From assembly GCF_056746865.1 (NCBI RefSeq), contig NZ_CM163382.1: a DNA stretch of 64,000 nt. One strand, given 5' to 3'. Positions 39,150 to 56,078 of this stretch are shown here, piece after piece. Position 1 is the first letter of the stretch. Every line of letters begins with the position of its first letter. A program made the position numbers and the translations under genes. The notes under the pieces are model-generated. The model saw nothing but the letters and a program-made list of their open reading frames with translations, searched no databases and had not been told where the DNA came from.

Positions 39150-39899
39150 ATGATTGAAGAAGGGCTGTTACTTCCAATGAATGTTTTGCTTCAAGGACAG
39201 AAGTTAACCCTACTGGACCCTGAAATGTGGTTCTTACGGGGAAATGAAAACAAGGATGTAACCCTTGTTATTACGATTGGTAATAACCATCAAAAATTAA
39301 TGGTAGTGGAAGACATATTACTGCTCATTGACCGAAGCCAAATTGAGGTAACTGCAGGGAAAGTAATTTATCATCCACTTCGCATTGATATCCTGAGTAA
39401 ATTATTAGCTTTTATTGATGAATCAACGGGGAGTGTGGAAAGGGAACACCATGAGTTGTTTGCTGATGCCTTGCCCTTTGCATCAGAAGTTGTGCTATTC
39501 AGTAAAGTTGCAAGTGAAGCCTGGTTTTTAGCCACTTATCTGAGCAGCGATAATATTAATGAAATTCTGTTTCAGCATCTAAGAAAAACAGAATGCTATA
39601 AACTGGTTCGCTATTTATTATCGCAATCGCTCATACAGACTTCACTCTATGATCTTGGTGAGCTTTACGGCGTATCGTATTCACATTTTCGCCGTTTATG
39701 TAGTTATGCATTGGGTGGTAAAGTTAAAACGGAATTATGTGGCTGGAGAGTTGCCAGAGCCGTGTTGGAAATCATTGAAGGAAACAGTGATATGACAACT
39801 ATTGCGCATAAATATGGCTACTCATCCTCATCACACTTTTCAGCTGAAGTAAAAAGTCGGTTAGGAAAAACACCGAGAGAACTATGTAAAAAGTTATGA
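39150..39899 (+). CDS. eivF: AraC-family T3SS regulator (InvF homologue)
   Basis: 249 aa with a C-terminal AraC HTH (YGVSYSHFRRLCSYALGGK...IAHKYGYSSSSHFSAEVKSRLGKTPRE). ATGA overlap with eivG. Confidence 0.85.
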   Translation: MIEEGLLLPMNVLLQGQKLTLLDPEMWFLRGNENKDVTLVITIGNNHQKLMVVEDILLLIDRSQIEVTAGKVIYHPLRIDILSKLLAFIDESTGSVEREHHELFADALPFASEVVLFSKVASEAWFLATYLSSDNINEILFQHLRKTECYKLVRYLLSQSLIQTSLYDLGELYGVSYSHFRRLCSYALGGKVKTELCGWRVARAVLEIIEGNSDMTTIAHKYGYSSSSHFSAEVKSRLGKTPRELCKKL

Positions 39900-41599
39900 A
39901 AATAAAATTACGTATTACTATTATATTAATTTCAGCCTTATGCATTTTTAATGGATTATTGACTCCTGGTGCATATGCCGCAACAGCGAATGGATACGTA
40001 GCAAATAAAGAAAATCTACGTAGTTTTTTTGAAACGGTTTCATCATATGCGGGTAAGCCTACAATAGTAAGTAAGCTTGCCATGAAGAAACAGATCAGCG
40101 GAAATTTTGATTTAACCGAACCCTATGCCTTGATTGAACGCCTGTCGGCGCAGATGGGACTTATTTGGTACGATGATGGCAAAGCTATTTATATCTATGA
40201 CTCATCAGAGATGCGTAATGCTCTGATTAATCTGAGAAAGGTATCGACTAATGAGTTTAATAATTTCTTAAAAAAATCGGGTCTGTATAACTCTCGTTAT
40301 GAAATTAAAGGGGGCGGCAATGGTACTTTCTATGTATCGGGGCCACCGGTTTATGTTGACCTGGTCGTTAATGCTGCAAAATTAATGGAGCAAAACAGTG
40401 ATGGCATCGAGATCGGACGCAATAAAGTAGGGATTATTCACCTGGTCAACACATTCGTTAATGATCGGACTTATGAATTACGTGGCGAAAAGATAGTTAT
40501 TCCTGGCATGGCAAAAGTACTATCGACGTTGTTAAATAATAACATTAAGCAAAGCACTGGGGTTAACGTACTTTCTGAAATTTCAAGTCGTCAACAACTA
40601 AAAAACGTATCACGTATGCCTCCTTTTCCTGGTGCTGAAGAAGATGATGATCTACAAGTAGAGAAAATAATATCGACAGCTGGAGCGCCAGAGACTGACG
40701 ATATACAAATTATTGCATATCCTGATACCAACAGTTTACTTGTTAAAGGAACAGTATCTCAGGTTGATTTTATCGAGAAGTTAGTAGCTACACTCGATAT
40801 TCCAAAGCGACACATTGAATTATCTTTATGGATAATAGATATTGATAAGACTGATCTAGAACAGTTAGGAGCTGACTGGTCGGGCACGATAAAAATTGGA
40901 TCCAGCCTAAGTGCATCATTTAATAATTCAGGTTCAATTAGTACCCTGGATGGGACACAGTTTATTGCAACAATACAGGCACTTGCGCAAAAAAGAAGAG
41001 CCGCCGTTGTTGCTCGTCCTGTCGTTTTAACACAGGAGAATATTCCTGCTATATTTGATAATAACCGTACTTTCTATACTAAATTAGTCGGCGAGCGTAC
41101 TGCGGAGTTGGATGAAGTAACCTATGGTACGATGATTAGCGTGCTACCACGATTTGCTTCGCGAAATCAAATTGAATTACTCTTGAATATTGAAGATGGC
41201 AATGAAATCAATTCTGACAAGACCAATGTTGATGATCTGCCTCAGGTTGGTAGAACGCTTATAAGTACTATTGCGCGCGTGCCTCAAGGGAAAAGTCTTT
41301 TGATTGGTGGATATACACGAGATACGAATACCTATGAAAGTCGCAAGATCCCAATATTAGGCAGTATTCCATTTATTGGTAAATTATTTGGATATGAAGG
41401 AACAAATGCGAATAACATCGTTCGTGTCTTTCTTATTGAGCCAAGAGAGATCGATGAGCGCATGATGAATAATGCGAATGAGGCTGCGGTTGACGCCAGA
41501 GCAATAACACAGCAAATGGCAAAAAATAAAGAAATCAACGATGAATTACTGCAGAAATGGATAAAAACTTACCTGAATCGTGAAGTCGTCGGAGGATAG
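39896..41599 (+). CDS. eivG: T3SS outer-membrane secretin (InvG/SctC homologue)
   Basis: 567 aa with a signal peptide and the secretin C-domain (VVARPVVLTQENIPAIFDNNRTFY...KIPILGSIPFIGKLF). Confidence 0.92.
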   Translation: MKIKLRITIILISALCIFNGLLTPGAYAATANGYVANKENLRSFFETVSSYAGKPTIVSKLAMKKQISGNFDLTEPYALIERLSAQMGLIWYDDGKAIYIYDSSEMRNALINLRKVSTNEFNNFLKKSGLYNSRYEIKGGGNGTFYVSGPPVYVDLVVNAAKLMEQNSDGIEIGRNKVGIIHLVNTFVNDRTYELRGEKIVIPGMAKVLSTLLNNNIKQSTGVNVLSEISSRQQLKNVSRMPPFPGAEEDDDLQVEKIISTAGAPETDDIQIIAYPDTNSLLVKGTVSQVDFIEKLVATLDIPKRHIELSLWIIDIDKTDLEQLGADWSGTIKIGSSLSASFNNSGSISTLDGTQFIATIQALAQKRRAAVVARPVVLTQENIPAIFDNNRTFYTKLVGERTAELDEVTYGTMISVLPRFASRNQIELLLNIEDGNEINSDKTNVDDLPQVGRTLISTIARVPQGKSLLIGGYTRDTNTYESRKIPILGSIPFIGKLFGYEGTNANNIVRVFLIEPREIDERMMNNANEAAVDARAITQQMAKNKEINDELLQKWIKTYLNREVVGG

Positions 41600-41603
41600 T
41601 GAA

Positions 41604-54832: not shown

Positions 54833-54847
54833 ACATATGAGAACGTT

Positions 54848-55429
54848 ATGAATCTTGCCCTAAGAAAAATTATATATGATCCAATTAGTTATATTCATCC
54901 CCAACGAGTAAGTTTGAATAATGCACGTATTAGCAATCCGGTACTTAGATCTATTACCAATGAAATGATACTCCTACAGTACAATCTTTCAGTTGAGCAT
55001 TTCAGTCTGAATAGTTCACTTATTTACTACATAAACAATTGGAAATTATTTCCATTGATCTGTTTACTCAGTGGTTGTCACTTTTATCGAGAAAGGTTTG
55101 CAGAACGCGGATTTTTTTACAAGGTTCCTGATGTGCTAAGGAATTATTTATCAGCTATACCGGTGGAAATAAATGAAAAGGCACGATATAAACCTGGTAT
55201 CGTTAACTATCAGAATATCATCACATGTGGTTTTTCAACGTTGTTGCCCTATCTAAGGCAACAACCGTTGGCAATGCAGCAACGATTTAATTTATTATTT
55301 CCTGATTTTGTTGACCACATACAATTGCCGTTACCACTTGCGTCTACTCTTTTGGAGAGAATTACATTTTATGCGAAAAAAAATAGAGATGAGCTTGATA
55401 AACTCTCCTGCAAATGGTGTTGTGATTAA
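54848..55429 (+). CDS. OrgA/SctK-like sorting-platform protein
   Basis: 193 aa in the orgA position immediately after the prgK homologue. Size is close to OrgA. Confidence 0.55.
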   Translation: MNLALRKIIYDPISYIHPQRVSLNNARISNPVLRSITNEMILLQYNLSVEHFSLNSSLIYYINNWKLFPLICLLSGCHFYRERFAERGFFYKVPDVLRNYLSAIPVEINEKARYKPGIVNYQNIITCGFSTLLPYLRQQPLAMQQRFNLLFPDFVDHIQLPLPLASTLLERITFYAKKNRDELDKLSCKWCCD

Positions 55430-56078
55430 AAGAATAATTTCTGATGGATTGAAAGAAATAGTTTCTCTAAAAGAACAGATCCTTCTTGAAACCACCGCAA
55501 AAATTCAGAGTATTGAGGAAAAGAGAGAAGAAAAAGTTATTCAAGGTTATTATGATGGCTATGCGAAAGGCATTATTGATGTGATGGATAATTTTATACC
55601 CTTGATAAGTTTGCTGAGCTCAGAATTAGAAAAAAACAGAATAAATATGATAAACGATCTGAAGAGCATATTGTTAAAATCTTCAGAGGAAGTTGAAGTT
55701 TTTATCAAAATTTTTGAAAGTTGGGTAACAAAATTACCGTCAATATCAGGCCCTTTAAATCTCTATATACCTACCAGTTTCAAAGATAAGTCTATTGAAG
55801 TAGAGTCATATTTTGTCGACAAGTCAATATGGAATGTCCATATTTCATATCATGATGACAAACGTTTTGTTTTTTTTACAGATCAATTTATTGCTGAATT
55901 TAGTCCGCAGGAATTTGTGGATAATTGTGAGCAATATTTAATTAGCAATCACTGTTTTTCCCCTGACAAGGTTAATGAAATCTGTGAACATGCCAGACAT
56001 TATTTAGTTGAAAGAATGTGTGAAATAGATTCTTTGGCTATGAATAATTCTGATTTGACGACCCCAGAGGACTTATAG
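55371..56078 (+). CDS. OrgB/SctL-like stator protein
   Basis: 235 aa from the ATG at 55371 (GGAGAGA RBS). N-terminal coiled coil. Position and size match OrgB. Confidence 0.5.
   Translation: MRKKIEMSLINSPANGVVIKRIISDGLKEIVSLKEQILLETTAKIQSIEEKREEKVIQGYYDGYAKGIIDVMDNFIPLISLLSSELEKNRINMINDLKSILLKSSEEVEVFIKIFESWVTKLPSISGPLNLYIPTSFKDKSIEVESYFVDKSIWNVHISYHDDKRFVFFTDQFIAEFSPQEFVDNCEQYLISNHCFSPDKVNEICEHARHYLVERMCEIDSLAMNNSDLTTPEDL

Follow-up and report, generated by a model that had tools for sequence, protein, structure and literature searches.

An ETT2 island, very probably of the published intact type, with an uninterrupted injectisome gene set in Escherichia coli

We analyzed a 64,000-nucleotide stretch of DNA (contig NZ_CM163382.1 of assembly GCF_056746865.1; hereafter the window) and found that positions 36700-64000 hold the glyU-associated island of the second type III secretion system of Escherichia coli (ETT2). 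The island is very probably the ordinary "intact" isoform of ETT2, of the type published for sequence type 69 (ST69) and related phylogroup D lineages, and it carries a complete injectisome gene set of the family of pathogenicity island 1 (SPI-1) of Salmonella. None of the 20 genes from eivF to orgB is interrupted, and the 16,929-bp core that spans them (39150-56078) was found at full length and 100% identity in at least 24 complete E. coli genomes. The island forms a single colinear alignment to E. coli 042 with 98.8% identity over 27.3 kb (311 mismatches and 7 single-base indels) and is likewise colinear with that of O157:H7 Sakai at 95.9% identity; from the uropathogenic strain 118UI it differs by one indel and one single-nucleotide polymorphism (SNP) across the 27.3 kb. 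Its guanine-cytosine (GC) content is 31-41%, compared with 51-54% for the core genome on the left flank. This intact form has already been described for ST69-like and related strains, and in that respect the island offers nothing beyond the published genomic surveys. The features of the island are as follows, with protein lengths in amino acids (aa).

36704..36718, no strand assigned, 15-bp core of the glyU 3' end (CTTCGCCCGCTCCAA), glyU-side boundary of the island
36950..38560, plus strand, GH15 glucoamylase-like gene, homologue of EC042_3075, frameshifted, with T4 at 38161-38164
39150..39899, plus strand, eivF, InvF-like AraC-family regulator, 249 aa, protein identical to that of 042
39896..41599, plus strand, eivG, SctC secretin, 567 aa
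41604..42749, plus strand, eivE, SctW gatekeeper, 381 aa
42742..44802, plus strand, eivA, SctV export gate, 686 aa
44834..46126, plus strand, eivC, SctN ATPase, 430 aa, Walker A and B as in InvC
46116..46574, plus strand, eivI, SctO stalk (SpaM/InvI-like), 152 aa, TTG start uncertain
46552..47427, plus strand, eivJ, SctP needle-length and substrate-switch protein, 291 aa, in frame
47427..48374, plus strand, epaO, SctQ sorting-platform protein, 315 aa
48364..49029, plus strand, epaP, SctR, 221 aa, profile match
49040..49300, plus strand, epaQ, SctS, 86 aa, profile match
49302..50069, plus strand, epaR, SctT, 255 aa, stop at codon 151 in Sakai
50078..51190, plus strand, epaS, SctU switch protein, 370 aa, NPTH autocleavage motif
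51261..51554, minus strand, InvH-like lipoprotein, putative secretin pilotin, 97 aa, LSAC lipobox
51556..52056, minus strand, etrA, LuxR-type regulator, 166 aa
52315..53496, plus strand, eprH, SctD inner-membrane ring protein, 393 aa
53510..53749, plus strand, eprI, SctF needle subunit, 79 aa, same protein in 042 and Sakai
53769..54101, plus strand, eprJ, SctI inner rod protein, 110 aa
54098..54832, plus strand, eprK, SctJ inner-membrane ring lipoprotein, 244 aa
54848..55429, plus strand, orgA, SctK, 193 aa
55371..56078, plus strand, orgB, SctL stator/linker protein, 235 aa, frameshifted in Sakai
56301..56933, plus strand, ygeK, LuxR-family regulator, 210 aa, intact
56952..57455, minus strand, pbl, IagB-like lytic transglycosylase, 167 aa, intact
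57925..59301, minus strand, ygeH, HilA-family regulator, 458 aa, intact
59636..60127, minus strand, ygeG, SicA/SycD-like TPR chaperone, 163 aa
60353..64000, no strand assigned, remainder of the island with ygeF, yqeK, yqeJ, yqeI, and yqeH (truncated where the window stops), those that are complete matching 042 in length

The initial annotation of this DNA had read each core component as one uninterrupted open reading frame (ORF), and profile comparisons agree. Matches to the NCBIfam profiles for SctC, W, V, N, Q, R, S, T, U, D, F, I, J, K, and L extend over virtually the whole profile: residues 1-686 of EivA correspond to positions 1-686 of the 686-position SctV profile, residues 1-370 of EivE to 5-372 of 372 for SctW, residues 1-429 of EivC to 1-430 of 431 for SctN, residues 2-315 of EpaO to 3-303 of 303 for SctQ, and residues 1-366 of EpaS to 1-366 of 367 for SctU. 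EpaP, EpaQ, EpaR, EprH, EprI, EprJ, EprK, and OrgA also match their profiles at full length, and EivG scores 486 bits against an SctC cut-off of 238 bits. The matches of EivI, EivJ, and OrgB are weaker, extending across the expected regions with scores below the Salmonella equivalog cut-offs, and the InvH match of the InvH-like protein is confined to its C-terminal part. The set expected of the SPI-1 / Inv-Mxi-Spa family (C, D, J, F, I, R, S, T, U, V, N, O, P, Q, K, L, and W) is thus complete. The predicted sizes of EivG and EivA were correct, as were the two motifs singled out earlier: the Walker A (ASAGCGKT), GERGREV, and Walker B stretches of EivC are identical to those of Salmonella InvC in an alignment to structure 6rad, and the NPTH autocleavage site of EpaS aligns with that of SpaS (8axk). 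A gene-by-gene comparison with 042, Sakai, and SPI-1 profiles and structures gave no truncation, missing domain, or motif loss. The apparatus and regulator genes thereby agree with "intact" as used by Ren 2004 and Fox 2020, for a locus free of deletions, insertions, and inactivating mutations.

Outside the core, ygeK, pbl, ygeI, ygeH, ygeG, ygeF, yqeK, yqeJ, and yqeI are likewise at full 042 length. The regulators EivF, EtrA, YgeK, and YgeH and the IagB-like Pbl had been described as uninterrupted within the core range; they are uninterrupted, with YgeK, Pbl, and YgeH lying beyond that range at 56301-59301. YqeI and YqeH are counted among the island regulators together with EivF, EtrA, YgeK, and YgeH. 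For several genes the start had to be chosen, the likely positions being 41604 for eivE, 46116 (TTG) for eivI, 49040 for epaQ, 52315 for eprH, 53769 for eprJ, 55371 for orgB, and 56301 for ygeK.

The most likely start of eivJ is the ATG at 46552, which has AGGAG upstream; the gene is intact, as first proposed, and encodes 291 and not 298 amino acids. The same length is found in large clusters of EivJ homologues, one of them with 680 member sequences. The gene contains three A8 tracts, at 46648-46655, 46988-46995, and 47011-47018. At the second of these the window has A8 and 042 has A7, because of which eivJ of 042 is frameshifted and stops after 161 codons, whereas that of the window reads through 291 codons. 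The 042 frameshift was already noted by Ooka et al. 2015 (PMC4700944). The 042-like strain CB209 and nine other loci carry A8 at the second tract, which makes the frameshift look specific to 042. We considered whether a frameshift of the 042 type extends across the class of 98.8% identity, as hinted by the fragment sizes in annotations of the Prokaryotic Genome Annotation Pipeline (PGAP), and rejected this, as direct translation gave an in-frame eivJ in 9 of 11 comparison loci. In E. albertii, 1-bp indels are described in one eivJ poly(A) tract (PMC4700944), and the third A8 tract is interrupted in several lineages (AAAATAAA). The A8 tracts could mark a hotspot of slippage or a site of phase variation.

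The start of epaO overlaps the eivJ stop codon (TAATG) and has AAGGA upstream. It is homologous to the start of SpaO, and the SctQ profile is aligned from the second residue. An in-frame internal ATG lies at codon 203 (position 48033) with a GAGGAG Shine-Dalgarno sequence ahead of it; we take 203 to be also the codon number of the internal start that gives the short SpaO product in Salmonella spaO. Fox et al. (PMC7058095) stressed a short product of the SpaO type as necessary for function.

In comparison with 042, all genes are colinear with those of the window, 19 of the 20 core genes are equal in length with 0-8 amino-acid differences each, and from eivF to yqeI the sole exception to equal length is eivJ. 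The GH15 gene is intact in 042, unlike in the window. Sakai has the same island and gene order with a series of lesions, all absent from the window: nonsense mutations at codon 78 of eivJ and codon 151 of epaR, 1-nt indels in epaO, eprH, orgB, the invH-like gene, and yqeJ, and the loss of 5 nt from the GH15 gene. The earlier statement that eivJ and epaR are broken in O157 therefore holds, although the Sakai lesions in the two genes are nonsense substitutions and not frameshifts. The gene families and their order match those of SPI-1 (invF-G-E-A-C-I-J, spaO-P-Q-R-S, and prgH-I-J-K-orgA-B). Unlike SPI-1, the ETT2 island lacks invB and sicA-sipBCDA, its translocon genes are found elsewhere, at the eip locus, the InvH-like protein of the window has just 97 residues, and EivJ, EivI, and OrgB have diverged strongly. 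As previously pointed out, invB cannot fit, because the gap from the eivA stop at 44802 to the eivC ATG at 44834 is 31 bp; 042 and Sakai are arranged alike. Presumably, the SPI-1 genes orgC, sptP, and hilC/hilD also have no counterpart in the ETT2 island.

The yqe-side gene order and boundaries are those of the ST69-lineage ETT2 described by Fox et al. 2020 (PMC7058095), and the 98.8% identity to 042 compares with 98.9% reported there for ST69. Near-identical loci are found in 118UI, NMBU-W13E19, CB7286, and PK8261, whose cores are identical to that of the window or at most 2 SNPs away; for 118UI, the literature provides an indirect connection to ST69. A wastewater ST69 isolate has 118UI and NMBU-W13E19 as its closest chromosomes, and the cores of these two are at least 99.9% identical to ours.

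To estimate how common the locus is, we searched 5426 complete genomes. Some part of the ETT2 core was found in 3690 and at least 80% of it in 932, while most genomes retain roughly the right-hand half and K-12 about 6%. An evenly spaced sample of the ranking, extrapolated to the 932, gave ~590 non-O157 loci and ~340 O157-like loci at 96.2% identity. Four of the 10 sampled non-O157 loci (PK8261, TUM1226, MSB1_3B, and B19695) were uninterrupted throughout, and the remaining 6 had one or two lesions each:

HR5-1, IS5 family element in epaO
LD67-1, nonsense mutation in eivJ
19KM1803, disrupted invH-like gene
CB209, frameshift in orgB
ST2747, frameshift in eivF
A30, frameshifts in eivG and eprH

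With 4 of 10 sampled loci uninterrupted and ~590 non-O157 loci, the core would, as a rough estimate, be uninterrupted in a few percent of complete genomes, ~4%. ETT2 is thus decayed in most E. coli, as had been stated, with deletions in most genomes and multiple lesions in O157; a complete locus is relatively uncommon, as claimed, but it is not rare. Published cases of intact ETT2 include 042 (Ren 2004; PMC2808357), 22 of 26 Scottish ST69 bloodstream isolates and global ST69 genomes, ST38, ST405, ST349, and ST362 (all PMC7058095), an O2 septicaemic strain (PMC6030553), and strain EC10 from neonatal meningitis, isolates from birds and pigs, and the majority of E. albertii (PMC11068852, PMC4700944).

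We computed dN/dS, the ratio of nonsynonymous to synonymous substitution rates, by the Nei-Gojobori method for 25 ETT2 genes. The ratio was 0.11 against 042 (dS 0.034) and 0.115 against Sakai (dS 0.137), and these low values indicate purifying selection on the apparatus genes. Values for eivG, eivA, eivC, epaP, epaQ, and eprI were 0.00-0.10, and that for eivJ was ~0.5; SctP proteins are generally fast-evolving, which would fit the latter.

If the system is functional, EilA, YgeH, EivF (with the SicA-like chaperone), and EtrA would turn on the eiv-epa and epr-org operons, and the products of these would build a needle complex of the SPI-1 type. The secretin EivG would act with the InvH-like pilotin, EprH and EprK would form the inner rings, and the export apparatus would consist of EpaP, EpaQ, EpaR, EpaS, and EivA, with EprI as the needle, EprJ as the inner rod, and EivJ as the length ruler. 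EpaO, OrgA, and OrgB would make up the sorting platform, EivC and its stalk EivI would provide the ATPase, and EivE would serve as the gatekeeper. EipB, EipC, and EipD, presumably supplied from the separate selC-linked eip locus, would be exported together with effectors. In 042 the tip and translocon genes are found at that locus, which comprises eicA, eipB/sctE, eipC, eipD, and eilA. The eip locus was present at a coverage of at least 80% in 721 genomes; the genomes with at least 99% identity numbered 147 for the eip locus and 151 for the ETT2 core. In CB7286, a strain sharing the ETT2 core of the window at 100% identity, eicA, eipB, eipC, eipD, and eilA are all intact.

Several observations weigh against the reading of the island as an intact system. 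No tip or translocon genes (SctA, SctE, SctB) were found in the 64-kb window, and the GH15 gene at the island edge, whose 042 homologue EC042_3075 was tentatively proposed as an ETT2 effector (PMC2808357), is frameshifted; under a stricter use of "intact" that covers all island ORFs, including the glucoamylase-like gene at the glyU end, this frameshift places the island outside the class. Close relatives readily inactivate the locus (HR5-1, CB209, ST2747, LD67-1), and secretome searches found no ETT2 substrates in two strains in which the locus is intact, one of ST69 and one of O2 (PMC7058095, PMC6030553). Furthermore, PGAP attaches a "frameshifted" label to epaO and divides eivJ into a fragment and a partial pseudogene in 118UI, 042, and ten other RefSeq loci. 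The intactness could then be merely apparent, with homopolymer assembly errors or inactivating substitutions leaving at least one essential component dead. The three A8 tracts of eivJ, one of them shifted both in 042 and in some strains of E. albertii (PMC4700944), point this way, as does the adjacent GH15 gene, in which the window has T4 at 38161-38164, compared with T5 in 118UI, 042, and Sakai, so that the frame ends after 423 of 536 codons. The 536-codon ORF is intact in 118UI, the closest relative, and this T4/T5 change is one of the two differences from 118UI in 27.3 kb; it may reflect a genuine mutation or an assembly error in the homopolymer. We nevertheless consider a concealed defect in the apparatus highly improbable, as the core is repeated base for base in the at least 24 independently assembled complete genomes and its key motifs are identical to those of functional Salmonella proteins. 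The RefSeq flags on epaO and eivJ were evaluated as hidden defects and rejected: they stand on every strain sampled, including 042, and trace to reference proteins of the Sakai type. The Sakai reference EpaO (328 aa) begins at an out-of-frame upstream ATG, equivalent to position 47387 of the window, which a 1-nt deletion found in Sakai alone (at window position 47461) fuses to epaO, and the eivJ "fragments" result from the use of the two Sakai halves as references. The calls are also inconsistent, since PK8261 and 118UI were assigned different epaR starts and eivJ fragments despite differing by just two substitutions that touch neither eivJ nor epaR. PGAP thus mis-flags epaO and eivJ in every intact ETT2 that we examined, since it takes its reference proteins from Sakai, where the locus is degenerate.

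A different alternative accepts the intact gene set and concerns its function: the locus would be intact on paper and give no working injectisome, the apparatus genes being silent or assembly-incompetent and the island being retained on account of its regulators and an indirect influence on flagella, fimbriae, the cell surface, and serum resistance. This is quite possible, though short of probable. Independent inactivating mutations are frequent, even among near-identical relatives, and AT-rich DNA such as this island of 31-41% GC is a typical target of H-NS. In the O2 septicaemic strain, deletion of ETT2 altered the expression of flagellar genes, the properties of the surface, and resistance to serum, yet no effector turned up among the secreted proteins (PMC6030553), and the failure to detect ETT2 substrates in the ST69 strain (PMC7058095) is in line with this. 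On the other hand, the low dN/dS of purely structural genes (eivG, eivA, eivC, epaP, epaQ, and eprI) is hard to reconcile with a role for the regulators only; the separate translocon locus eip is conserved and found alongside ETT2, epaO keeps its internal start of the SpaO type, and, according to a review, EspE3 is secreted by the intact ETT2 of avian pathogenic E. coli (PMC11068852). Experimental support for ETT2 secretion is weak, and for that reason the regulatory and cell-surface explanation remains a serious alternative. That the ST69-type ETT2 is a working injectisome is nevertheless plausible, because eivJ is in frame, unlike in 042, and a relative with an identical core has a complete eip locus. 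The fuller proposition, in which this injectisome awaits its inducing conditions and the eivJ A8 tracts are slippage on/off switches that make secretion phase-variable, strikes us as rather unlikely. The reading of the island as the published intact isoform with a complete gene set concerns the genes themselves and remains very probable.

The surroundings of the island differ from those of 118UI-type loci. Between the GH15 gene and eivF, a 59-residue ORF resembling GhoT/OrtT-family toxins (38625-38804) is kept in 042 and Sakai with 1 amino-acid difference from each. A scan of the whole window at the Rfam gathering thresholds, made partly for an InvR-like small RNA near the invH-like gene, returned only an int-alpA RNA, located in an unrelated island. 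The latter is an integrative island of ~19.9 kb (16792-36718) that lies between a CRISPR-Cas region and ETT2 and also carries DUF927, AntA/BRO-type, and large unnamed ORFs, in addition to the following:

16931-18184, tyrosine integrase ORF
18229-18296, int-alpA RNA

The glyU 3' core CTTCGCCCGCTCCAA is found at both junctions of this island (16792-16806 and 36704-36718), and the island adjoins GH15/ETT2 in four other genomes, for example SCU-105. In 118UI-type loci the left context is glyU/actS, and the GH15 gene has no 1-nt deletion; in the window the integrase island is instead joined to cas5e. The segments matching 1-16798 and 36700-64000 lie ~136 kb apart in 118UI and in opposite orientation, which would imply an inversion between glyU and a pseudo-attachment (pseudo-att) site within cas5e. 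The native cas5e shares with the att core the motif CTTCGCC alone, and it is possible that the junction at 16798 is an assembly artefact. None of the complete genomes searched contained the whole window, the best matches covering one side of this junction. The proposed inversion cuts cas5e 63 nt from its 5' end and leaves the window without a tRNA gene: the 15-bp glyU core at 36704-36718 is all that the window holds of glyU at the ETT2 boundary, because the 19.9-kb island and the apparent inversion separate ETT2 from glyU. The type I-E CRISPR array (13111-14176) has 18 repeats of 29 nt with 32-nt spacers and adjoins cas2-cas1-cas6e-cas5e; cas1e is annotated with an internal stop in a 118UI sequence 100% identical to the window. 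Given this stop and the truncation of cas5e, the type I-E CRISPR-Cas system of this genome is probably inactive.

The practical value of the comparison is that it exposes the RefSeq flags on epaO and eivJ as artefacts, shows the eivJ frameshift of 042 to be apparently strain-specific, and gives a rough estimate of the frequency of the uninterrupted locus. The finding bears on the question of whether ETT2 secretes in any E. coli, ST69-type strains being common urinary and bloodstream pathogens. A strain whose apparatus genes are uninterrupted and whose eivJ is in frame would be a better starting point for experiments than the reference strain 042.

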